Of a stretch of DNA of 16,393 nucleotides, positions 297 to 14,532 are shown in pieces. The notes beneath the pieces are model-generated. The model saw only the letters and a list, made by a program, of their open reading frames with translations. It made no database searches and had not been told where the DNA came from. This DNA comes from a virus (Duplodnaviria > Heunggongvirae > Uroviricota > Caudoviricetes): the IMG/VR virus record IMGVR_UViG_2778261657_000002; one strand, given 5' to 3'. The first letter of the stretch is position 1. Every line of letters begins with the position of its first letter. The position numbers and the translations under genes are program-made.

Positions 297-1337
297 CTAA
301 GCTGTCGCGACATTTTTGCGACATTTTAAGGGGTTAAGTCGCACGGCATCTTCAAGGTGGCTTGGGGCGAAATGGGCATAACGCATTGTCATAGTGATGT
401 CAGCGTGGCCGAGAATTTTTTGCAGAACCAGAATGTTCCCGCCGTTCATCATAAAGTGGCTGGCAAATGTATGGCGCAGTACATGGGTAAGCTGGCCGGA
501 GGGGAGTTCAATGCCTGCGCGTTCCAAAGCAGAGCGGAACGCGTTATAGCAGGGTTTGGGGAACAGAGCGCCTTTCGTTTCAGGCAATTCGGATAGAAGT
601 TCATCATCAAGGGGGATTGTTCTGTTGCGCTTCCCTTTGGTTTTGACGAACGTAACTTTATCGCCTGCGATCTGAGAGCTTTTCAGCGTTGCCGCTTCAT
701 TCCATCTTGCGCCGGTCGCAAGACAGATTTTTACGACTAGCTCCAAGTATTTTACTTTGCTTCGTTTGCATTCCAGCAAAAGCAGCTCAATTTCTTCAGC
801 AGTGAGGAAAGCCATTTCGGTTTCATCAGTACGATACTGTCTGACGTTTTCCAGTGGGTTGGGGGCTGACCATTCCCCGATTCGTTTCAGCTCGTTGAAC
901 ATAGCCAGGAAGTAAGCATGTTCAAGGTTCATTGTTTTCGGGGAAACCTTGGATACTCTGCTAGTGCGGGCATAATGCCCATCAAGCCTTTTTGCGCGGT
1001 AGGCCGTGAACAGCTGGGCATTAAACTCTGTAGCTAGCGGGAATCCCATGCACTCTGCCGCCCAGGTCATAGCGTCTTTGCGCTTTTGACCATTGCGCAA
1101 AGCTACTCCGTGGCGTTCATACCACATTGTGATCAGGTCTATTAAAGTTCGTTTGTCCTTCCCTTCACCCAGCCAGGGCGCACTGTCTACTTTCTGAAGC
1201 GTATGGTTCTCAAATGCCAGGGCTTCCCCCTTCGTGGCAAATTTTTTACGTATGCGCTTCCCGTTCTTACCATTACTACGGTTGACGGTGTAGAAGTCGG
1301 CGATCCATTCGCCTGTCGGAAGTTTACGAACACTCAT
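297..1337 (-). CDS. int: Phage tyrosine integrase (site-specific recombinase)
   Basis: The C-terminal catalytic region carries the tyrosine-recombinase signature LTHVLRHTFASHF...ILGHADITMTMRYAH (R, H-x-x-R and the nucleophile Y). It lies immediately downstream of the cI-like gene, with the cI stop and int ATG arranged as TGAaATG, as in 186. The ORF track starts at a TTG at 1346; I prefer the in-frame ATG at 1337. Confidence 0.93.
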   Translation of the reverse strand: MSVRKLPTGEWIADFYTVNRSNGKNGKRIRKKFATKGEALAFENHTLQKVDSAPWLGEGKDKRTLIDLITMWYERHGVALRNGQKRKDAMTWAAECMGFPLATEFNAQLFTAYRAKRLDGHYARTSRVSKVSPKTMNLEHAYFLAMFNELKRIGEWSAPNPLENVRQYRTDETEMAFLTAEEIELLLLECKRSKVKYLELVVKICLATGARWNEAATLKSSQIAGDKVTFVKTKGKRNRTIPLDDELLSELPETKGALFPKPCYNAFRSALERAGIELPSGQLTHVLRHTFASHFMMNGGNILVLQKILGHADITMTMRYAHFAPSHLEDAVRLNPLKCRKNVATA

Positions 1338-1338
1338 T

Positions 1339-1917
1339 TCATTCAATCGTCAGAACAATGCGGCCGATGATTTTTATATCGTCAATACCGCAGTCAAAAG
1401 CCATACCTACGCCGCTTACTCTAACTTTTCCCACAGGGATGCGTGTTAGTGTTCTAACGCTGGTTTTACCTTCAACTTCGACAAGCCAAACATCGTCATA
1501 AACTTCAGTAAAGTGTTGATCAACAATGTATTGCATTGTGTTATCAATCACACAGATAGGATTCTGCGGTAAAGGTTTGCCAGGTAAAAAAGTAACCTTA
1601 TCGAGCATTAGGAAACCAGACTCATAGAGTTTTCCGTCCACAATCTTCTTGCGTGGCAATTTCATGATGTCTAATTCGTCATCGTTAAACTTTCTACCTT
1701 GTCCAGTCGCAAGCCATTCCAGAGTAGCTCCTGTTTCAGCCATACATCTAACAACGATATCAGCTGGAAAAAAATCCCTCTTATACCGGTTAGCCAGACT
1801 GCTGCTTGCTATATCAAGATGTTCGGCTAGGGCTAGTTTTGTGTTGAATCCATACGCTTGGATAACTCTATCTAGTACCTCAGCTCCGCCATGAGAAAAC
1901 TCAATTTGTAGATTCAC
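1339..1917 (-). CDS. cI: 186-type CI immunity repressor
   Basis: 192 aa, the length I recall for phage 186 CI. N-terminal HTH-like segment (VLDRVIQAYGFNTKLALAEHLDIASSSLANRY). It is transcribed divergently from the apl/cII operon and sits directly upstream of int. The start is a GTG with an AAGG ribosome-binding site about 10 nt upstream. Confidence 0.85.
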   Translation of the reverse strand: MNLQIEFSHGGAEVLDRVIQAYGFNTKLALAEHLDIASSSLANRYKRDFFPADIVVRCMAETGATLEWLATGQGRKFNDDELDIMKLPRKKIVDGKLYESGFLMLDKVTFLPGKPLPQNPICVIDNTMQYIVDQHFTEVYDDVWLVEVEGKTSVRTLTRIPVGKVRVSGVGMAFDCGIDDIKIIGRIVLTIE

Positions 1918-5136: not shown

Positions 5137-5986
5137 AACTCCGCTTAAATGGGTGGGCAGCAAAGCCCGCCTTATGCCTAAGCTGCGTCCGCACCTTCCA
5201 GAAGGTAAACGCCTGGTTGAACCGTTCGCAGGTTCCTGCGCCGTCATGATGAATACGGATTATGACGAGTATCTGATCGCAGATGTGAATCCTGATCTGG
5301 TTAATCTTTATAAGGCGATGGCGTATCACACTGATGCGCTGCTGAATGAGCTGGAGATCCTGTTTACTGCCAGTTCGTTAGGTGATGAAGAAAGCCGTGC
5401 CGTTTTCTATTACGCCGTGCGTGATGCTTTCAATCTTTCTGGTGGTAAGGCTGGTTCTGAATCTGTTGAAAATGCTGCGCGTTTCCTGTACCTGAATCGC
5501 CACTGCTTCAATGGCCTGTGCCGGTATAACCGCCGAGGACAGTTCAACGTCCCGTTCGGTAAGTACAAAAAGCCTTATTTCCCCGCTGATGAAATCCGCG
5601 CCTTTGCTGAAAAAGCGAAACGCGCAACGTTCATTACTGCCCACTATTCAGAAACACTCGATTTGGTTCGGGACGGGAATGACGTTGTTTACTGTGATCC
5701 GCCTTATCTGACTGAAAGCGACAATTTCACCGCTTACCATGAGCGCGGTTTTACGCATATGGATCAGGGGAGGCTGGCGCGTAAGTTGCGCCGTCTGGCC
5801 AGAAAAGGTGTGCCGGTTGTGGCCTCTAACGCCGATCTGGAAATGGTTCATTACCTGTACGCCGGATTTGAAGCCGTTCGCGTTAATGCCCCGCGAAGTA
5901 TTGGTGCCGCAGCTACATGCCAAAAGACGGCCGCTGAGTTGATTCTGAAGTCTCCGCTTGATTCCATTGTGGTGGCTTGTGCATGA
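5126..5986 (+). CDS. dam: Dam-family DNA N6-adenine methyltransferase
   Basis: Catalytic DPPY motif (VVYCDPPYL), N-terminal AdoMet-binding region (KWVGSKARL...EPFAGSCAV) and overall length typical of GATC-type Dam methylases. GGAGG ribosome-binding site. The target specificity is not shown by the sequence. Confidence 0.9.
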
Positions 5987-8004
5987 CGCTGGCAATAAAC
6001 GAACAATGCTATGCCGTTGATGCCTGGAGGCGGGAAACATTCGCGCCAGGCACTCCGGCAGACGCGACAATCACAGAACGCCGCCTGTGGGCTGTAAACC
6101 CGCAGGATTATGAATGGCGATCCCGGTACCTGCATGAGATACCCGACTGGTTAGCCGGGTATTTTGGCCGTCGTTACGAAAAGCTTTTTTCTGGCCGTGA
6201 CGGGCGTCGCCGTGCCAATACATTCCTGCGCAAAACAATCGGTGAGAATGTATTGCCACGTCTGCGCAAAGTGGCTGCGCGTTACTCGCTGGCCGCTGAT
6301 GCTGCTGATCTTCCTTTTGGTAAGTCGCTGGAGCGCTTGCCGTCACTAGACCGTCCTGATCTTAAAAAACTGGCTGGCCAGATATCTGGCTGGATTTCCC
6401 AGTCACTTTATGACTTCACCGAACAGTTTGATTCCGGCGCTGACGACGCCAGAGAGCTGCATCGCCGCACCCTGGAATCATACCGCCATCTTTGTGCCTG
6501 TTGCCTGATGCTGAATAACCAGCCGCCGTACTGGGCTGAACATGAGGCCAATGAAGGTCAACTGGAAATGCGTAAGGCGGAATCCGGGATACTGCGCATG
6601 ATGGCGCCGGAATGGTGGTACCTGCGTTTTAAACGTGCTCGTGATACGCAGCGCGAGCACATGGCCATTACGGTGGGACAGGTGCAAAAAGCGGCCAGCG
6701 CTTATGTATCTCGCAAAACACTGGGCGAATGGATAGACCAGAAAAAGCGGAATCTGGAGTTCTTTAAAAAGTTTGATCTGCTGAATGATGAGGGGCTGCG
6801 CATTGCACTGGACAGCATGGTGCACCGCAGCGTTGCAAATCCGGCGATCCGTCGATGTGAACTAATGGTAAGAATGCGAGGGTTCGAAGATATGGCCAAT
6901 GAAGAAGGGCTGGCCGGTGAGTTTTACACTATCACCGCGCCATCACGTTTCCATGCGGTTCACAGCAAAGGGGGCTTTGTATCGCAATGGGATGGAAGTA
7001 CACCGCAGGATACCCAGCGCTATTTATGCGGCGTATGGGCAAAAGCACGCGCAGCGATCTCGCGTGCGGGTATTCATGTATTTGGGTTTCGGGTTGTTGA
7101 GCCTCACCATGACGGGACACCGCACTGGCATATGTTGCTTTTTATGCGTCCGCAGGACGTGGACACGGTGCGCGATATTCTTTGCTATCACGCCAGAATT
7201 ACCGATTCTGAAGAACTGCAATCTGAAAAGGCGCTGAAGGCACGTTTTCATGTTGAAGCTATCGATCCCGCCAAAGGTTCGGCCACGGGCTACATCGCGA
7301 AATACATTTCAAAAAATATTGATGGTTTTGCGCTTGATGGTGAGCAGGACGAAGAAACCGGCGAAAACCTGCGTGATATGGCTAAGTCCGTTTCCGCGTG
7401 GGCTTCACGCTGGCGTATTCGCCAGTTTCAGCAGATTGGTGGTGCGCCGGTAACCGTCTGGCGTGAGCTGCGTCGGTTGCGGGATCAGGTACTGACAGAT
7501 CGCAGAATGGATGCGGTTCTGGCCGCTGCTGATGTCGGGGACTGGGCTGCATATACCCAGGCGCAGGGAGGGGCACTGGTTGCCCGCCGTGATCTGGTTG
7601 TTCGTCTGGCCTATGAAATTACGGAACAGGGCAACGAATACGCGGAGGACGTGCAGCGCGTACAGGGTGTTTATTCTCCTTTGGTTCCTGATTCAGAAGT
7701 TTGCACCCGTCTGGTTAAGTGGCAAAAGGTTGCGAAGTTGGCCGAAGCGCCAGCGGAGGCGGGTTTTTCTGGCGGCAACGCCGCCCCTTGGAGTTCTGTC
7801 AATAACTGTACGGAAGGGGGAACCCGCAGACGGTTAAAACTGGAATTATGCAGTCGGGGTTTTGATGGTTCTGATGAAGAAATAGCGATTCTCCTGCGGG
7901 GTAGTGGTTTGAGATTTGGTCAGGGCGCTCTGATTTACCGCAACGGACGGCTTAAAGAGACTCAAAACGAGCCATTACAGGAGCTGTGGCCGGGGTGGTT
8001 ATAG
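5983..8004 (+). CDS. A: Replication initiation protein gpA (rolling-circle nickase)
   Basis: About 674 aa, with the metal-binding HUH-type motif (TPHWHMLLF) and the paired active-site tyrosines (GYIAKYISK) characteristic of the P2/186 A protein. The start overlaps the dam stop (ATGA). The origin should lie inside this gene but I could not locate it. Confidence 0.9.
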   Translation: MTLAINEQCYAVDAWRRETFAPGTPADATITERRLWAVNPQDYEWRSRYLHEIPDWLAGYFGRRYEKLFSGRDGRRRANTFLRKTIGENVLPRLRKVAARYSLAADAADLPFGKSLERLPSLDRPDLKKLAGQISGWISQSLYDFTEQFDSGADDARELHRRTLESYRHLCACCLMLNNQPPYWAEHEANEGQLEMRKAESGILRMMAPEWWYLRFKRARDTQREHMAITVGQVQKAASAYVSRKTLGEWIDQKKRNLEFFKKFDLLNDEGLRIALDSMVHRSVANPAIRRCELMVRMRGFEDMANEEGLAGEFYTITAPSRFHAVHSKGGFVSQWDGSTPQDTQRYLCGVWAKARAAISRAGIHVFGFRVVEPHHDGTPHWHMLLFMRPQDVDTVRDILCYHARITDSEELQSEKALKARFHVEAIDPAKGSATGYIAKYISKNIDGFALDGEQDEETGENLRDMAKSVSAWASRWRIRQFQQIGGAPVTVWRELRRLRDQVLTDRRMDAVLAAADVGDWAAYTQAQGGALVARRDLVVRLAYEITEQGNEYAEDVQRVQGVYSPLVPDSEVCTRLVKWQKVAKLAEAPAEAGFSGGNAAPWSSVNNCTEGGTRRRLKLELCSRGFDGSDEEIAILLRGSGLRFGQGALIYRNGRLKETQNEPLQELWPGWL

Positions 8005-8081
8005 CGGTGTAAGTATGTGAAAGGCATTCATTTGTCAGTAGATGGCAGGAAATTAAATTTCACAATTCGTGCTTTAAGGTG

Positions 8082-8101
8082 TACTGTATGTATATCCAGT
8101 T
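8082..8101 (+). promoter_or_regulatory. Candidate LexA (SOS) box
   Basis: TACTGTATGTATATCCAGTT matches the E. coli LexA consensus TACTGTATATATATACAGTA at 17 of 20 positions, with CTG-N10-CAG retained. It lies 22 bp upstream of the ATG at 8124. Confidence 0.5.
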
Positions 8102-8123
8102 ATTTATTGCTTGTGGGGGCTAA

Positions 8124-8330
8124 ATGGATCTTTTGGAGGCGTCGGCACAGCTGGAACGCATTGAGTTATTGGCCAAAATTGCCCATATTTACGAAAGTAA
8201 CCAGAGAGAGAAAACAATCGCTTTGGCCTGGATTGGAGAGCTTGCGGGAGAGGTTCGCGAAATGGTAAAAAAGGAAGGGCAACGCCCCCAGAATGGGGGC
8301 ATTTTAGGCGGCGGGGGGCATTTTCAGTAG
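8124..8330 (+). CDS. Small ORF downstream of the LexA box; candidate Tum-like SOS-inducible antirepressor
   Basis: 68-aa ORF (MDLLEASAQLERIELLAKIAHIYESNQREKTIALAWIGELAGEVREMVKK...) with a balanced, helical-looking composition and a GGGGG stretch 5 nt upstream of the ATG. Position after gene A and behind a LexA box parallels tum of phage 186. The function is inferred from context only. Confidence 0.4.
   Translation: MDLLEASAQLERIELLAKIAHIYESNQREKTIALAWIGELAGEVREMVKKEGQRPQNGGILGGGGHFQ
8262..8300 (-). terminator. Candidate intrinsic terminator for the minus-strand late operon
   Basis: On the minus strand, immediately after the ogr stop: GCCCCC-attct-GGGGGC hairpin, then gttGCCCttcc and a TTTTTT run. 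The T-run is not directly adjacent to the main stem, so this is tentative. Confidence 0.35.
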
Positions 8331-8627
8331 GTCTAATGCCATCTGGCGCTGATCGGGTGAAAGTGCATTCAGTATTTTTTGCACCATCGCATCACCCGTT
8401 TTAGCGCTGGGGCTGAGAGTGTGGGAGAACGTCAGATTCATAACAAACGTGTGGCCACACTCAACATCTGAACAGGCGCAGTAAATATCCGCAATCTGCC
8501 GGTGCTTCCGGTTCGTTTTACGAATAACAGCCTTTGAGCCGCATTCCGGGCATTCGATTTTCAGAACTCGCATATTCCATGCTCCAGCTGTTAAATGATG
8601 CCTGGATTTTAGCCTGTTTCGCCTCAT
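8304..8627 (-). CDS. ogr: Ogr/Delta-family zinc-finger late-gene transcription activator
   Basis: Contains C-P-x-C ... Y-C-x-C-x4-C-x2-T-F (ECPECGSKAV...IYCACSDVECGHTF), matching the Cys pattern I recall for P2 Ogr and 186 B. The ATG overlaps the portal stop (ATGA). An internal Met (MRVLKIECPEC, start at 8573) is an alternative start. Confidence 0.8.
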   Translation of the reverse strand: MRRNRLKSRHHLTAGAWNMRVLKIECPECGSKAVIRKTNRKHRQIADIYCACSDVECGHTFVMNLTFSHTLSPSAKTGDAMVQKILNALSPDQRQMALDLLKMPPAA

Positions 8628-9685
8628 GCCGCACCCTTATCCGTTGATTCTGTGTAACTTAAATCAAAGTTAAGGTGTAGCCTTTTCGGTATTTCGGGAT
8701 CGCCGTTAACGGCCAGCATGAAACGGCGCTGGATGGGGGCTATTTCGCTTTTCTTGTAAATGCGTTCAGCCTTTTCAACATCCCCCAGTCCGGCAGTGTT
8801 CTGCGGGACAATACCGGCGAGGCCAGCAGGGAAACGGTGCGCGTTCAGAATGTCCTGGGCGCTGATGTTTTTGATATTGGCAAATTCATCTTTTGCAGAA
8901 ATATCCCCCATTTCGATGAACTTGATTGCATCCCCATCCCCGCCTGGTATGTTCACCAGAATAGTGGAGAAGTTACCGATACCTTTGCTGTCACGCAGCT
9001 GCTGTTCAATTTCTTCTTCCATTTCATCCGTCATACTGGGATCGCGGGTATAAAGAATACCGCCTGTGTGCGCACCGTTGTGGTAATAGCGGCGTCGGAA
9101 AATGACCGCTTCACTGTTAAGTAACGCGGAATGCACACCGCCGATGTAGTCTGGCAGTCCGTAGATATGCTGTTGCGGGTCATACATTTTGATAAAGATA
9201 ATATCTTCTTCTGGCCATACCTGCGGTTCCCCTTCCTGTAACACCACGTAGTCACCGGGTTTATCCTGGGCGTTATCTCTGACTTTGCGGCGGCGAATAT
9301 ACAGACCGGGCAAGGGTTCAAGTGCGATCACGTCGCCCCAGCCGTTACGAATTTTGGCAATCGCAATATCCCCAAAGGTTATATAGTCAAACGCTGCCGC
9401 TTCCAGCTGGTCGTGAATAAGCCCGCCCCCCTGATAGTCTGAAACAATCATGTTTTTACGGGCGTGAATGATGCCGCCGTGCTGACCGTTAAGATTAATC
9501 AGTTGTGCGAGTGCCAGCCGGTCAATCGGCTGGGTGAAGTGATCGGCGGCATTGTCGTACCAGATATCACGGTAATCTGTGCCGGTAGTCAGAACCGGTT
9601 CAGGTTTGCCGAATGTGATAATGCTCATCTTTTTTGATTTGTCGCCGCGCTGGTCGCGCTTAACAAAGCGTTTCTTTTTACTCAT
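8624..9685 (-). CDS. Q: Portal protein (gpQ-like)
   Basis: 353 aa (P2 gpQ is about 344 aa). It lies immediately downstream of, and overlaps by ATGA, the terminase large subunit gene, and is divergent from the scaffold and capsid genes, as in P2. Confidence 0.85.
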   Translation of the reverse strand: MSKKKRFVKRDQRGDKSKKMSIITFGKPEPVLTTGTDYRDIWYDNAADHFTQPIDRLALAQLINLNGQHGGIIHARKNMIVSDYQGGGLIHDQLEAAAFDYITFGDIAIAKIRNGWGDVIALEPLPGLYIRRRKVRDNAQDKPGDYVVLQEGEPQVWPEEDIIFIKMYDPQQHIYGLPDYIGGVHSALLNSEAVIFRRRYYHNGAHTGGILYTRDPSMTDEMEEEIEQQLRDSKGIGNFSTILVNIPGGDGDAIKFIEMGDISAKDEFANIKNISAQDILNAHRFPAGLAGIVPQNTAGLGDVEKAERIYKKSEIAPIQRRFMLAVNGDPEIPKRLHLNFDLSYTESTDKGAA

Positions 9686-11457
9686 GCTGCCTCTTTCCTT
9701 ACACCCCAGCGGGATTTCGGTTTGTTTTCATAGTTAAGGGGTTCGTTATGCAGACCGTGGGTAATCGCCCAGAATGCCTCTGCGTGGCCGGTATCCTGGC
9801 TGCGGTCAGCGACAAACGTCATGGTGTTGCCGCTTTGTGTGGTGGTTCGGCGCACAGACATAAAGCTGGCGGCGATCTCTTTCATATTTTTATCCCACTC
9901 AATACGCTGGCTTTCCACCACGTCCACCGCTTTCAGTACCAGCTTATTTTTTGTGTTCAGGTCGTAACGAATGGGGACGGCCACGCGCATGGCAAAATGC
10001 TGAATGTTGTCAAAAACACCCTGGCCAATGCCGGTAACGTCCACCCCCAGATAAGTGAAGTTGTATTTTTTGAACAACTGCTCGATCTGTTTTGCCTGGT
10101 ACCGGAAGTTCATGCCTTTCCAGTAAATCACCTTCAGAACGCGGAACTTCTCCACGGCGAGCATCGGTGGGGCGATGATGACAAAACAGGACAAATCCCC
10201 GCTGCGAGCCGGGTCAAAGCCACCCCACACTGGCCTGTCACCGAATGGCCGCGCTGCATCAGGGTTGTGATCCTGCCAGGTGTCGATTTCAACTCCGCAG
10301 GCTTCCAGGTCGGAAAAGCTGAAAACGGAGTCTTTGCTGTCAACGAACACGCACATATAGAGCATGTTAAAAGTGGCGTCGTTGTAGCGGTTGCGAAGTT
10401 TCTCGATGTTCGCCAGGTTGAAACCGCCCGTAATGGCATCTTCCATCGTAATGACGTAGCGCCATTGCCCATCCGGGCAGAGTCGCCCGCCGTCACGCAT
10501 TTCGTTAAAAGACGGAAACTTAATGGCCGCACGTTTTTTACTGCCCTGTTTCCACTCATCGCCCGTCCAGAACGGGTAAGCCTGGTGCGTTTTTGCTGAT
10601 GGCGTTGAAAAATAGGTGGTACGCCACTTGTCATGTGTGGCCATTGCGCTGGCCACTTCGTTAAGTTTTGCAAAGTTTGGCACCCAGAAATATTCGTCAC
10701 AGTACAGGTGGCCACTGTAGGACTGGGCGGTGTTTTTGTTGGTGGAGAGAAAACGCAGTTCTGCGCCGTTGCTTAAGCGGATCGGGTTGCCGGTCAGCGT
10801 AATACCGAAATACTGCTCTGCAATATTCACGATGTAAGACCGGAACACTTCAGCCTGAGCCTTTGACGCTGACAGAAAGATTTGCGGAGCGCCGGTCATC
10901 ACCGCGTTTTCAAACGCTTCAAACGCAAAATACCAGGTCGCACCGATCTGGCGGCTTTTCAGGATGTTCCTGACAAGCTGGCCAATGTTATTGCGCAGGT
11001 GTTTCTGATATTCAAAAAGATGTTCCTCAGCCCATGCGTCAAAGTCCTCCTGCGTCAGCGAGGTAATATCGTTTTTCTTGTATTTCCGTTTACTGCGCGG
11101 TTCGTCGTCATTGTTGTCTCGTGCAGCTGCTTGCCCGGAACTCTGACCGCTGGCCATTTTCTCTTTGTGTTTATTACTCTGCGCACGCAGTTTCGTGGCA
11201 TGAGCAATGAGCATGTCCATTTCTTTCAGGTCTAGATCGGTTTTGTTATCGCGGCTGGCCAGCAGCTGGTAACGGCGTTCAATTGCTTCCTCTGTGCTTT
11301 CAAAACTGAGCAAATCCGCCCAGCTGTATTTCTCCGCCCAGTAGTAAACGATCCGCGCATTCGGCAGATTTAATTCAGATGCGATTTCCTTTGGCGTATA
11401 GCGGCGCAGATAAAGTGCGCGAACAACGCCTTTTAATTCTTCAGAGTATTTAGCCAT
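9682..11457 (-). CDS. P: Terminase large (ATPase) subunit (gpP-like)
   Basis: 591 aa (P2 gpP is about 590 aa). Terminase-type deviant Walker A (KSRQIGAT, compare T4 gp17 SRQLGKT). First gene of the leftward late operon. Confidence 0.9.
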   Translation of the reverse strand: MAKYSEELKGVVRALYLRRYTPKEIASELNLPNARIVYYWAEKYSWADLLSFESTEEAIERRYQLLASRDNKTDLDLKEMDMLIAHATKLRAQSNKHKEKMASGQSSGQAAARDNNDDEPRSKRKYKKNDITSLTQEDFDAWAEEHLFEYQKHLRNNIGQLVRNILKSRQIGATWYFAFEAFENAVMTGAPQIFLSASKAQAEVFRSYIVNIAEQYFGITLTGNPIRLSNGAELRFLSTNKNTAQSYSGHLYCDEYFWVPNFAKLNEVASAMATHDKWRTTYFSTPSAKTHQAYPFWTGDEWKQGSKKRAAIKFPSFNEMRDGGRLCPDGQWRYVITMEDAITGGFNLANIEKLRNRYNDATFNMLYMCVFVDSKDSVFSFSDLEACGVEIDTWQDHNPDAARPFGDRPVWGGFDPARSGDLSCFVIIAPPMLAVEKFRVLKVIYWKGMNFRYQAKQIEQLFKKYNFTYLGVDVTGIGQGVFDNIQHFAMRVAVPIRYDLNTKNKLVLKAVDVVESQRIEWDKNMKEIAASFMSVRRTTTQSGNTMTFVADRSQDTGHAEAFWAITHGLHNEPLNYENKPKSRWGVRKEAA

Positions 11458-11619
11458 ACGGATAATTATGCCGTGGTTGTGATGAAAAAACGGTGGTGTT
11501 AATTCGTGTCTGTTCGGTAAAGCGTTATAACCGAACTGTTCAGAATAAAGCGTAATGCAGTGGCGGTTTTATTTGGCAATAATTGAGTTCGCAGGGTCAG
11601 TGAATAAATCAGGGGGGAT
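11458..11619. promoter_or_regulatory. Divergent late promoter region between P and O
   Basis: Intergenic region between divergently transcribed terminase and scaffold genes, where P2 has its Ogr-dependent late promoters. Contains the inverted repeat GTTCGGT-N11-ACCGAAC (11512..11536). I could not find the exact TGT-N12-ACA spacing I recall for P2 late promoters. Confidence 0.4.
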
Positions 11620-12420
11620 ATGTCGCATTTAAAAACTGACTGGCTGTGTGTTGCCACAGAAGGCGATACGGTTGATGGCAGGGTCATGGAACGGCAATGG
11701 ATTATTGACATGGGGGAAACCTATGATGTCACCAATTATGCCGCACTAATCTGGCCTGAACATGAACGATATGCCGGTAATTTTGGCGAAGTGCTAAAGG
11801 CGATGTGGCAGGACGGGGAAGATGGGCTGGCACGATTATATGTGAGCCTGTGTCCTAACAAGCGCCTGTTGTATGCCAATGATGAAGGGCAATTGCTTTA
11901 TTTCTCTGTTGAGCCAGAACTTAACTGGCGCGGAGGTGAGCGAACGTATCTGGGCGGACTGGCCGTAACGGACAATCCCGCCAGTGTGGGCACTACACGG
12001 TTGCGCTTTAGTCGGCGCAGACTATCAAAACAGGGATATTACAGTTGCGTAATTTCCCGTGACGGAAAAATTAAGCAGGAAGAACTGATGAAAAAAACCT
12101 GGCACCATTTATTTGGCATTAAGCCAAAGTTTGAAAGCGAAGGTCAGCAGGATGATACGCAGCAGGGTGATGATAAATTGCAGGCGCTTGCGAATGCTGT
12201 TAACGATCTGGAAGCGCGAGTGGGGGCAATTGAAACACAACTGAGCACTGTTCAGGAAGATGTGGATACTATTGTTGAAGTTGTGGACACGGAAGAGTTT
12301 GCGGCCATTCGTGATAATGCGAAAGAAATCGTAACCCGTTTTAACGATCTGGATAATAAGAATACCCGCTCACCGGGGCGTAAAATTTCAGAAAAAGCCG
12401 GGAAATATAATTTTCTGTAA
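11620..12420 (+). CDS. O: Capsid scaffolding protein (gpO-like)
   Basis: 266 aa. The segments TEGDTVDGRVM and YLGGLAVTDNPASVGTT match what I recall of P2 gpO (GDTCDGRVI, YLVGLAVTDDPASLGT). AGGGGGG ribosome-binding site. Confidence 0.85.
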   Translation: MSHLKTDWLCVATEGDTVDGRVMERQWIIDMGETYDVTNYAALIWPEHERYAGNFGEVLKAMWQDGEDGLARLYVSLCPNKRLLYANDEGQLLYFSVEPELNWRGGERTYLGGLAVTDNPASVGTTRLRFSRRRLSKQGYYSCVISRDGKIKQEELMKKTWHHLFGIKPKFESEGQQDDTQQGDDKLQALANAVNDLEARVGAIETQLSTVQEDVDTIVEVVDTEEFAAIRDNAKEIVTRFNDLDNKNTRSPGRKISEKAGKYNFL

Positions 12421-12483
12421 TTCGCTTTAACGCTGATTAGCCCAGAATAAATTTTATATATCGCTTAATTGCGAGGGAGTTTT

Positions 12484-14532
12484 ATGCACCTTAATAATCG
12501 TGCGCGGGATTTACTGGATAAATATTCGGCGGGGATGGCGCAGCATTTTGGCGCACGTGATACCAGTCGTTATTTTTCCCTGAATGACCCGCAGGAAAAT
12601 GCGCTGCGTCTTGCGTTGCTGGAGTCCGTCGAGTTCCTGAACATGATCACCTGTCTGGATGTTGACCAGCTGAGTGGTCAGGTGATTTCTGTCGGTTCTT
12701 CCGTGCTGCATACCGGCCGCAGTGAGAATGGCCGTTTTATTCGTCGTGTGGGTGTTGACGGTAATGACTATTCGCTGGTTGAGACAGACAGCTGCGCCGC
12801 GTTGCGCTGGGATCTGCTTTCGGTTTGGGCAAATGCGGGTAAGGATGAAAACGAGTTTTTCAATCTTGTCCAGGCATTCACCACACAGGCTTTTGCACTG
12901 GATATGCTGCGTATTGGTTTTAATGGTAAAAGCCGCGCAAAAACCACTGACCCGGAAGCCAACCCGAACGGCGAGGATGTGAACGTTGGCTGGCATGAGC
13001 GTATGAAAACGCTGCTGGGCGGCAATCAGATTATGACCGATCCCGTGGTGCTCGATGAGGCCGGGGATTACAAGTCACTGGATGCAATGGCGTCCGATCT
13101 GATTAACGCCAAAATCCCGGCGCAGTTCCGCAATGACCCGCGTCTGGTTGTCCTTGTCGGTGCCGATCTGGTCGCTGCTGAACAGTACCGACTGTATCAG
13201 GCAGCTGACCGTCCGACTGAAAAAATTGCTGCGCAGATGCTGGGGAGCACCATTGCTGGCCGTCAGGCCATTATCCAGGATTACATCTGGTACCAGTTAC
13301 CTGATGGTTCGCTTTACGTCGGCGGCGTAGAAAAGTCATTGTTTGCCGGTCGTCCAGTAGAAATCCCGTCAGAGTTCAGCCAGGGGGCTGCTGGCGGTAA
13401 CTCTGTGACATTACCAGTGATCCAGACTATACGGCCAGGGGTGGAGATGAACGGTGAACGCGTGACTAAAGTTCACCTGACTAATGACACGATGGCGATC
13501 ACATGGACGCCGAGAAACCGCGCAACGGGTAAACCTTTGCAGAAAACACCAGCGCAACGGCAGATTGAAAGCCATTACCCGGAACTGGCATCCGGGCTTC
13601 ATTTGCCAAAGATGGCCAGAGTCGTGGCGCATTCAGAGCCGGTAAAAAGCGGTAACTTTGCCGATCCCTTCCGGCCACGTTACGCCGTGGACGTGCAGCT
13701 GCTTGACGCAGACGGAAATCCGGACAATCAGACGCCTGTTTATTCAGCGGTGCCGCTGCCGGTACCAATGGCCGGGAATGATTCAGGTATGTTTCAGTTC
13801 CCGCCAGAAGGGACGCTGGTTGAGGTCGCATTCACAGGAGGCAGACCGGATAAACCTTTTATCAGGCAGACGCTGCCGAATGGTACCAGTCTGCCGGACG
13901 TTAAACCCGGTGAGCAATTGCAGCAGCAGCGGGAAGAAGTATCCCAGAGGGTGACTCTGGCGGGTGACTGGGTAAGGCAGACCGATCAGACCATCAGTGA
14001 AACATCGATGGTGCGAACGGTAAAAGCAGATACAGAACAACGTGATCTGGTCAGTCGCGAAACCACGGTTAAAGCCACGGATAAAACCATTGTGGTGGGG
14101 ACCGCCACCCTGCTAGCCGGAGCCTTTCAGCAGGTCAGTGCCGGGGATTTTAGCCAGGCCGTGAAAGGTAACAGGCTGGCCAGCATTGAAGGAAACGAAG
14201 AAACGGACATAGCAGGACAGCAGTCCATTAAAGTGGGCGGTGCTGTAGCCGTGGAGGTTGGCGAAAGCCTGACAGAGAAGATTGCCGCGCTGCGTAAATC
14301 AGTGGCCGCTGGCGGTCAGCAGGTCATGGGGGAAACAGTCCATATTGGCAGTGAGAATATCAACGCCCTGACCATGATGCTGGACACTATTGATTTACTG
14401 GCAGAACTGGCGCTGCAATGCGCGAACCATTCACACCCCACCGTTGGGACTCCAACCAATGCCGCCGCGTTCACACAGACGGCGACGAAAGCCGGGCAGA
14501 CCCGGAGCAAGTACCAGAACATCATTGCCTGA
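12484..14532 (+). CDS. Chimeric ORF: N-terminal gpN-like major capsid region fused in frame to a C-terminal gpV-like baseplate spike region
   Basis: About 682 aa from the ATG at 12484 (GAGGGAG ribosome-binding site), roughly twice the size of P2 gpN (about 357 aa). The N-terminal third to half has capsid-like segments (GFNGKSRAKTTDPEANP...VGW, GDYKSLDAM, DPRLVVLVGADL). The C-terminal part has an OB-fold-like segment (FPPEGTLVEVAFTGGRPDKPF) and a terminal HxH motif (CANHSHPTVG) like the iron-binding spike tip of gpV-type proteins. No stop codon or frameshift separates the two parts. Confidence 0.6.
   Translation: MHLNNRARDLLDKYSAGMAQHFGARDTSRYFSLNDPQENALRLALLESVEFLNMITCLDVDQLSGQVISVGSSVLHTGRSENGRFIRRVGVDGNDYSLVETDSCAALRWDLLSVWANAGKDENEFFNLVQAFTTQAFALDMLRIGFNGKSRAKTTDPEANPNGEDVNVGWHERMKTLLGGNQIMTDPVVLDEAGDYKSLDAMASDLINAKIPAQFRNDPRLVVLVGADLVAAEQYRLYQAADRPTEKIAAQMLGSTIAGRQAIIQDYIWYQLPDGSLYVGGVEKSLFAGRPVEIPSEFSQGAAGGNSVTLPVIQTIRPGVEMNGERVTKVHLTNDTMAITWTPRNRATGKPLQKTPAQRQIESHYPELASGLHLPKMARVVAHSEPVKSGNFADPFRPRYAVDVQLLDADGNPDNQTPVYSAVPLPVPMAGNDSGMFQFPPEGTLVEVAFTGGRPDKPFIRQTLPNGTSLPDVKPGEQLQQQREEVSQRVTLAGDWVRQTDQTISETSMVRTVKADTEQRDLVSRETTVKATDKTIVVGTATLLAGAFQQVSAGDFSQAVKGNRLASIEGNEETDIAGQQSIKVGGAVAVEVGESLTEKIAALRKSVAAGGQQVMGETVHIGSENINALTMMLDTIDLLAELALQCANHSHPTVGTPTNAAAFTQTATKAGQTRSKYQNIIA

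Follow-up and report, generated by a model that had tools for sequence, protein, structure and literature searches.

An Ogr/Delta-family activator gene behind the portal gene of an ESSI-2-like prophage, with a candidate promoter of its own and a conserved start codon at the portal stop

The window analyzed here, a 16,393-nucleotide (nt) stretch of viral DNA (Caudoviricetes; IMG/VR record IMGVR_UViG_2778261657_000002), is part of a P2-like prophage of the ESSI-2/Quadragintavirus type with a gene order like that of phages HP1 and K139, and our subject is its gene for an Ogr-like activator of late transcription (ogr), which lies on the minus strand directly behind the genes for terminase and portal. 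Positions 7900-11800 of the window share 96-97% DNA identity with Escherichia phages ESSI2_ev040, ev015 and ev129 (Peduoviridae, Quadragintavirus) and 80-88% identity with Salmonella and Cronobacter relatives. The window encodes homologues of gpA, gpQ, gpP, gpO and gpN, and its close relatives are classified in Peduoviridae. The features from which the control of ogr can be read are listed below, with lengths of proteins in amino acids (aa), expect values (E) for profile matches, and ORF for open reading frame.

9682..11457, minus strand: terminase large subunit, homologue of P2 gpP (Pfam Terminase_6N, E = 4e-53; Terminase_6C, E = 7e-28; Terminase_5, E = 2e-10)
8624..9685, minus strand: portal protein, homologue of P2 gpQ (Pfam Phage_portal, E = 3e-17; ORF table; annotation of ev040)
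8304..8627, minus strand: Ogr/Delta ORF in its longest form, 107 aa, opening at the ATG that overlaps the portal stop
8304..8573, minus strand: Ogr/Delta core, 89 aa, with the zinc finger CX2CX22CX4C; the form that RefSeq annotates in ESSI2_ev040
8629..8634, minus strand: candidate -35 element GTGCGG, whose TG (8633-8632) is kept in 98% of 41 relatives, with a 17-nt spacer to TAAAAT
8606..8611, minus strand: candidate -10 element TAAAAT, at -38..-33 from the core ATG
8582..8585, minus strand: Shine-Dalgarno sequence GGAG, 8 nt before the ATG at 8573; its GG at -12/-11 is kept in 98% of relatives
8284..8300, no strand assigned: GC-rich hairpin GCCCCC-ATTCT-GGGGGC, 4 nt after the ogr stop, from a terminator scan
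11512..11536, no strand assigned: perfect dyad GTTCGGT-N11-ACCGAAC, a candidate operator in the 162-base-pair divergent gap between terminase and scaffold
11465..11470, minus strand: -10-like CATAAT, assigned to a putative late promoter of terminase; 41 nt separate it from the dyad, and it ends 7 nt before the terminase ATG
11620..12420, plus strand: capsid scaffold, gpO homologue (Pfam Phage_GPO, E = 6e-34), first gene of the divergent rightward late operon and followed by the capsid gene

Terminase is the first gene of the leftward late unit, and its counterpart in ESSI2_ev040 is likewise annotated as a terminase large subunit. The initial annotation had described terminase, portal and the Ogr-like ORF as minus-strand genes joined by stop/start overlaps, and both the ORFs and the sequence confirm this: a minus-strand ATGA at 9685-9682 combines the terminase stop with the portal start, and another at 8627-8624 combines the portal stop with the first ATG of the Ogr-like ORF. 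The second overlap (8624-8627) is real only if the ORF begins at that first ATG. The same annotation had set the position of the activator gene apart from that in P2 and 186 and suggested that gene order be compared with relatives; in this comparison the position is not unusual, as terminase-portal-ogr is the standard arrangement in HP1/K139-type relatives and ev040 is already annotated in this way.

Judged by its sequence, the 107-aa ORF is a genuine Ogr/Delta-family gene of the late-gene activator type. It matches the Pfam profile PF04606 (Ogr_Delta) with E = 9e-20 and 70.7 bits (cut-off 26.3) over all 47 profile positions, and PHROG 603, a transcriptional regulator, with E = 4e-40. Its cysteines C26, C29, C52 and C57 form the CX2CX22CX4C motif given for this family (PMC3931495). 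The alignment with P2 Ogr, 186 B and P4 Delta that had been proposed as a check succeeds, with the four cysteines invariant among these proteins, K139 Orf13 and the phiO18P homologue, at an overall identity of about 21% to P2 Ogr and to 186 B. Proteins of this family bind an inverted repeat upstream of late promoters and activate transcription through RNA polymerase's alpha subunit (PMC3152322). Searches for the window protein returned no relative in PDB and no specific NCBIfam model. A C-terminal tail longer than that of the 72-aa P2 Ogr had been pointed out earlier, and the 89-aa core bears this out, but the longer C-terminal region is common to K139 Orf13 and the phiO18P homologue and is therefore a trait of the subfamily and not a peculiarity of the window gene.

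The Pfam Ogr_Delta domain starts at residue 25 of the long ORF, and in RefSeq the homologues from ev040 (98% identical) and ev239 are 89 aa long, starting from an ATG equivalent to window position 8573, while the GenBank records of ESSI-2 and of Yersinia phage vB_YenM_324 (Yen324) carry the long form. We compared the region across 53 prophage loci, taken from contigs of one genome per species, and 80 viral contigs, and calculated column entropies in 41 distinct sequences over a segment from 75 nt before the core ATG to 150 nt after it. Within the core, mean entropies at codon positions 1, 2 and 3 were 0.35, 0.13 and 1.20, the pattern of selection on a protein, whereas the 18-codon extension between the two start codons gave 0.90, 0.86 and 1.11, without coding periodicity. 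The conserved columns of the extension are instead contiguous DNA motifs: TG at -60/-59, ATG at -54..-52, TAAAAT at -38..-33, GG at -12/-11 and AA at -3/-2. Several more short columns of the extension are conserved for no evident reason, namely AA at -45/-44, G at -40 and AGG at -30..-28.

Of these motifs, TAAAAT recurs in 40 of the 41 genome and phage sequences compared (the exception reads TAAACT) and in all 37 viral-contig variants. It spans codons of which the first stands for L, V or I, the second for K and the third for S, Y, F or L, and the third positions never vary though the encoded residue does. The T of the conserved TG in the -35 region is the third base of a portal Gly codon, and it is still 98% conserved. 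Some lineages carry TGnTAAAAT, an extended -10 element. The arrangement resembles the annotated ogr promoter of P2, which has TTG, a 17-nt spacer and a -10 element beginning TAAAAT at -40..-35 from the ogr ATG, and pB of phage 186, with its -10 element at -37..-32. On these comparative grounds we interpret 8634-8606 as a putative weak sigma-70 promoter specific to ogr, with a predicted transcription start near 8599.

The ATG that overlaps the portal stop is probably not meaningless. In 37 of 38 distinct sequences from genomes and phage records and in 37 of 37 viral-contig variants, the portal stop has a start codon overlapping it or immediately next to it, in the form ATGA, TAATG or TGATG; it is mostly ATG, with GTG or TTG in a few relatives. 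The frame leading from it to the core is open in 38/38 and 37/37 of these sequences, compared with 26/38 for a control frame, and the portal-ogr gaps of 50, 53 and 56 nt differ by multiples of three. The last portal codon may be GCA, GAA, TTA, AAA or GTA, so the residue differs while the third base is always A; where the portal stop has moved by 3 nt the ATG is retained, as TAATG or TGATG; and in Siccibacter prophages the core starts with GTG while the upstream ATG is still present. The upstream ATG is thus conserved more than by chance. The chances appear about evenly balanced that ribosomes finishing portal on a polycistronic RNA restart at ATG 8627 and make the 107-aa form. The extension is not conserved as a protein sequence. 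Translational coupling of portal and ogr, as claimed in the initial annotation, is possible on this evidence, with the overlapping ATG and the open frame on its side and the lack of protein-level constraint in the extension against it.

Downstream of ogr there is good comparative evidence for an intrinsic terminator of the terminase-portal-ogr unit. A hairpin with a T run follows within about 15 nt or less of the ogr stop in 22 of 28 relatives scanned, and the stems are unrelated among relatives (GCCCCC/GGGGGC, AGGCACC/GGTGCCT, GAAGCCCGC/GCGGGCTTT and others) and co-varying; because the stems differ in sequence while the position of the hairpin is kept, we regard it as the predicted end of the unit. 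The hairpin at 8284-8300 probably works in both directions, ending the convergent transcript too, because on the plus strand it is followed by ATTTTA. Within the 50-nt gap between portal and ogr, the terminator scan found no terminator-like site on the gene strand, and late transcripts from the terminase promoter should therefore enter ogr. A conserved RNA structure in this gap was also considered and set aside, as folding energies were unremarkable and varied from -5 to -20 kcal/mol among relatives.

Late read-through, and with it self-amplification of the activator, is plausible from this arrangement. The earlier claim of co-transcription accordingly holds as far as the absence of a terminator between portal and ogr and the presence of one after ogr are concerned, but it has to accommodate a promoter indicated within the first 18 codons of the long ORF. 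An independent promoter and terminator flanking ogr had been named in advance as arguments against its membership of the late operon, and half of this was found: there is a comparative promoter signal and a terminator downstream.

A plausible target for the activator lies in the divergent gap between terminase and scaffold. The perfect dyad at 11512-11536 occurs once per genome in the window, ev040 and Yen324, compared with 0.06-0.09 occurrences in shuffled sequences, and TTCGG-N13/14-CCGAA is found in the same gap in ev040, vB_YenM_324, ESSI-2, ev239, K139 and phiO18P, and in an imperfect form in HP1. It is a good candidate for the binding site of this Ogr subfamily, where it could serve both divergent late promoters. 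The P2 consensus TGT-N12-ACA was tried as an alternative; it has four matches in the window, compared with 3.9 in shuffles, and none in 11458-11619. The initial annotation had suggested that an Ogr-dependent late promoter would let the activator amplify its own synthesis, and the dyad is indeed placed like the activator site of P2, although the idea itself is not new, having been part of the picture for P2, 186 and P4.

No -35 match was found for the terminase CATAAT, which is the only -10-like hexamer before terminase, and ATTATG stands at the same 41-nt distance from the dyad in vB_YenM_324. The sequence before terminase (11455-11470, minus strand) contains no Shine-Dalgarno sequence, and because the -10 hexamer ends 7 nt before the ATG and no Shine-Dalgarno sequence is present, the terminase message may be leaderless or nearly so. 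The same leaderless-like geometry was observed in vB_YenM_324 and not in ev239, where AGGAAG precedes the ATG.

We consider it fairly probable that ogr and its flanks form a compact promoter-gene-terminator cassette behind portal that combines a promoter of its own, late promoters activated through the dyad, feedback by read-through and possibly a coupled isoform. Early on, the weak sigma-70 promoter lying over the last portal codons would, as conservation suggests, start transcription at about 8599 and give a leader of about 26 nt that carries GGAG, from which ATG 8573 would be translated into the 89-aa protein. By analogy with P2 and 186, this protein would then bind the single dyad at 11512-11536 and switch on both divergent late promoters. 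Leftward late transcripts running through terminase, portal and ogr would feed back more activator, provided that read-through occurs, and on these transcripts ribosomes may also restart at ATG 8627 and produce the 107-aa form.

Several observations weigh against this interpretation. The start of ogr is annotated inconsistently among records, at 89 aa in some and 106-107 aa in others, and in a few relatives the portal stop is accompanied by TTG or GTG only, or by no start codon at all. The proposed -35 element is poor, with 2/6 matches, and a consensus promoter scan of the window did not call the site at 8634-8606, which it missed because the -35 is weak. The interpretation gives no account of how the ogr promoter is kept silent in a lysogen: window and ev040 differ in their immunity regions and yet agree fully in the sequence of the promoter region, and the ogr promoter of the window has no LexA box, unlike the homologues in K139, phiO18P and Aliivibrio. 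A second activator dyad near the ogr promoter, by which the gene's own promoter would be self-activated, was searched for with up to 1 mismatch and not found. The candidate operator differs from the experimentally defined P2 site TGT-N12-ACA, and if CATAAT and AATAAT are the -10 boxes, the spacing suggests that the dyad centre lies about 66 nt, not 55 nt, from the start sites. The T run that follows the hairpin on the minus strand is displaced by about 10 nt in the window, and because of this displacement termination after ogr may be weak here. Finally, the promoter, its start site, read-through and activator binding are all things that we infer. We also considered repression of the ogr promoter by an immunity-specific repressor, as occurs at 186 pB, and rate it unlikely, since the window and ev040 have unrelated immunity modules but one and the same promoter region.

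Among the alternatives, the one that fares best takes ogr as fully independent, transcribed only from its own promoter and translated only as 89 aa, with the upstream ATG and open frame as by-products of a sequence in which portal stop, -35 element and spacer are packed together, and with late transcripts contributing nothing useful. The conserved promoter motifs and Shine-Dalgarno sequence and the 89-aa form in RefSeq agree with this proposal, as does an extension peptide that is not conserved as protein; the control frame, which is also open in 26 of 38 sequences, and the relatives with TTG, GTG or no start at the portal stop likewise fit it. We nevertheless think it unlikely. Portal and ogr are separated by neither a terminator nor a long gap, so that read-through RNA is expected unless it is actively blocked, and the P2 and 186 records indicate late read-through in those phages. 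A by-product would also have to account for the A that precedes TGA whether the last portal residue is A, E, L, K or V, for an ATG that stays when the portal stop shifts by 3 nt, and for gap lengths restricted to 50, 53 and 56 nt.

At the opposite extreme, ogr could lack a promoter of its own and simply be the last cistron of the terminase-portal operon, made only in the 107-aa form through ATGA coupling, primed by basal leakage and then self-amplified. The ATGA overlaps at both junctions, the conserved start codon and open frame at the portal stop, the long form annotated in ESSI-2 and vB_YenM_324 and the missing terminator between portal and ogr all point in this direction, but an activator made only from a promoter that needs the activator has no obvious way to start, and the extension that this proposal treats as coding lacks coding-type conservation and holds TAAAAT, a TG 17 nt upstream of it and a GGAG before the internal ATG. 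Moreover, P2 and 186 carry a separate activator promoter, K139 has a predicted P13, and phiO18P and HP1 lack the coupling ATG altogether, so we judge this arrangement improbable. Very improbable indeed is that the TAAAAT block is a cis element of another kind, for example a site for packaging or regulation or an RNA structure that controls the translation of ogr: the weak -35, the silent promoter scan and the conserved columns left over at -45/-44 (AA), -40 (G) and -30..-28 (AGG) would suit it, but the cos site of HP1-type phages adjoins attP (PMC2771037) and no P2-like cos is present in the window, folding energies of -5 to -20 kcal/mol among relatives do not suggest a conserved structure, and in hexamer, spacer and distance to the ATG the block agrees with the annotated P2 ogr promoter and with 186 pB.

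The cassette with its own promoter and late read-through, which we prefer, has clear parallels in P2 and 186. P2 ogr and 186 B encode zinc-finger activators of the Ogr/Delta family with CX2CX22CX4C, each with its own promoter and each directly after the last gene of a late operon. The P2 record annotates a "rho-independent terminator for ogr transcript and F operon", and the 186 record has "tB; termination of transcription from pB and late promoter". One activator site is annotated between the divergent pP and pO promoters in both phages, and the window likewise has one dyad in that gap. Birkeland and colleagues reportedly found in 1991 that P2 ogr is co-transcribed with FETUD late in infection and has its own promoter too. 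The initial annotation had called ogr/B a separate unit located elsewhere in P2 and 186; the different location, after D, is correct, but the gene ends the late tail operon there and the terminator is annotated as shared. Unlike the window, P2 and 186 have the tail operon (F/J) as the upstream late operon, with the gene after D and next to attP/int, their activators are 72 aa, their binding site is TGT-N12-ACA, 186 pB is repressed by CI, and P2 has no in-frame start at the D stop.

Satellite P4 provides the parallel for self-activation, as activation of the P4 sid promoter by Delta/Ogr is an established self-activating arrangement. P4 delta lies inside the late sid-delta-psu operon and has a 4-nt ATGA overlap with sid (sid 9583-10317, delta 10314-10814). 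P4 Delta differs from the window protein in carrying the Ogr fold as a tandem duplication (166 aa), in coming from a satellite element and in being encoded in the middle of the operon and not at its end.

The gene and its context are essentially the same in ESSI2_ev040 (gp26, also in ev015 and ev129), ESSI-2 and vB_YenM_324 as in the window. Identity over the Ogr core is 98% for ev040, 93% for Cronobacter phage ESSI-2 and 68% for Yen324, and in ev040, ESSI-2 and Yen324 the order is terminase-portal-ogr, convergent with the gpA operon, as it is here; ev040 annotates the counterpart of ogr as a transcriptional regulator. The window differs from these three phages in having another immunity/integrase module, in having lost about 14 kilobases (kb) of structural genes, and in the degraded T run of its ogr terminator.

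More distant members of the same Ogr subfamily are found in Vibrio phage K139 (orf13, 54% identity), Aeromonas phage phiO18P (gp19, 45-47%) and Haemophilus phages HP1/HP2 (~40%), where the gene is downstream of terminase and portal on the same strand, with a terminator and then the convergent early genes behind it. The terminase/scaffold gap of K139, phiO18P and HP1 contains a TTCGG-N14-CCGAA dyad (imperfect in HP1), as in the window. K139 has the order orf16-orf15-orf14-orf13, with an extra orf14 between portal and orf13 that the window lacks, and a predicted P13 promoter. Unlike the window, K139, phiO18P and HP1 are without an in-frame ATG where portal stops. The position of the activator behind portal in K139 and Smhb1 has been remarked on in the Smhb1 paper (PMC8537503). 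In HP1-type phages cos adjoins attP and does not lie behind portal (PMC2771037), leaving the slot behind portal free, and we consequently dropped cos as an explanation of the conserved block; the window, searched with up to 3 mismatches allowed, has no copy of the P2/186 cos sequence GGCGAGGCGGGGAAAGCAC.

In HP1c1 we observed an unannotated ogr homologue behind portal (locus L005, 4460-4715; NC_001697 ~10420-10680) that is split over two frames, with the first CX2C in one frame and YYCACKNPLCGHRFVMN... in the other. The match in HP2 covers query residues 2 to 76 in one piece, while that in HP1 covers 14 to 76, and the split in HP1c1 is either a sequencing error or a real frameshift.

K139 and phiO18P also have a perfect LexA-type box, CTGT-N8-ACAG, at the ogr promoter, a feature that the window is without. 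A palindrome of this type, CTGTAyAwAAACACAG, is present at the ogr promoter of K139 (L002, 4438-4453), phiO18P (L003, 4431-4446) and Aliivibrio prophages (L061, 2947-2962; L062, 77-92), about 50-65 nt before the ATG of the ogr homologue, compared with about 0.1 per locus in shuffled sequences. K139 has a second LexA-type palindrome at the convergent orf12 promoter. These sites suggest that the late activator of K139, phiO18P and the Aliivibrio prophages may be under direct SOS control.

The placement of ogr is ordinary for its phage group, and feedback by read-through is already part of the P2/186/P4 picture, so the window matters little beyond annotation. What may be modestly new is a late-only 107-aa isoform, if it exists, and the subfamily dyad TTCGG-N13/14-CCGAA in place of TGT-N12-ACA. 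Tentatively, we suggest that phages of the enterobacterial ESSI-2-like clade could make both an 89-aa form from the activator's own promoter and a late-only 107-aa form by reinitiation, in combination with a subfamily operator TTCGG-N13/14-CCGAA that differs from TGT-N12-ACA. If this were true, the 107-aa protein would have a basic, sequence-tolerant N-terminal extension, made by termination-reinitiation only on terminase-portal-ogr read-through RNA, and the gene's own promoter would lie inside the stretch that codes for the late isoform. The comparison among relatives points to the start of the conserved protein and to a reason why an upstream ATG is kept nevertheless, and it provides a testable promoter (TAAAAT, 8611-8606) and operator (TTCGG-N13/14-CCGAA) for late control in widespread enterobacterial, Vibrio and Aeromonas prophages.

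The remainder of the window was mapped by its ORFs and compared in gene order with K139, phiO18P, HP1, ev040 and Yen324. The HP1/K139-type order was found: int, repressor, early operon and rep/gpA, then convergent ogr, portal and terminase, then divergent scaffold and capsid. The other features of this map are as follows.

297-1346, minus strand: integrase (ORF map)
1339-1917, minus strand: repressor-like ORF (ORF map)
5977-8004, plus strand: gpA replicase, last gene of the rightward early operon
8084..8099, plus strand: LexA-box-like CTGTATGTATATCCAG (CTG-N10-CAG), about 25 nt upstream of the 68-aa ORF
8124..8330, plus strand: small Tum-like ORF, 68 aa (PHROG 698, unknown function, E = 3e-22; a hypothetical protein in ev040)

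The 68-aa ORF is convergent with ogr, and its 3' end overlaps both the 3' end of ogr and the hairpin. Over 38 aa it is 32% identical to the N-terminus of Tum, the antirepressor of 186 (E = 2e-5 in a pairwise comparison). Perfect CTGT-N8-ACAG boxes are present at the place equivalent to the LexA-like box in ev040 and vB_YenM_324. Together, the box and the 68-aa ORF look like a 186-type SOS-inducible antirepressor module positioned after gene A.

Positions 1-2286 of the window, which hold integrase, repressor and cox, have no or weak similarity to ESSI2_ev040, whereas the rest is 91-95% identical, and the two prophages are probably heteroimmune mosaics. A second discontinuity is seen at 13269-13276: up to there the window follows ESSI2_ev040 into the capsid gene (ev040 15216), and from there on it matches the last baseplate gene (ev040 1278), 8 nt at the junction being common to both sides. 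Compared with ev040, the window copy lacks about 13.9 kb that hold genes for head completion, tail and lysis, and the junction creates an in-frame fusion ORF (12469-14532, plus strand) of capsid (aa 8-272) and baseplate (aa 263-687). The junction was found in 0 of 5,426 complete E. coli genomes, so it represents either a deletion private to this copy or an artefact of assembly. With about 14 kb of genes for head, tail and lysis absent, the late circuit of this copy is probably vestigial and has hardly anything to control, provided that the junction was not produced by assembly.

Among the prophage loci was one (L013) on a 20-kb contig (JAEWTL010000126.1) from a metagenome-assembled genome labelled Bacillota, in which ogr and portal are 98% and 100% identical to those of the window, which may derive from this contig; that a bin labelled "Bacillota" should hold a P2-like prophage of enterobacterial type suggests mis-binning.

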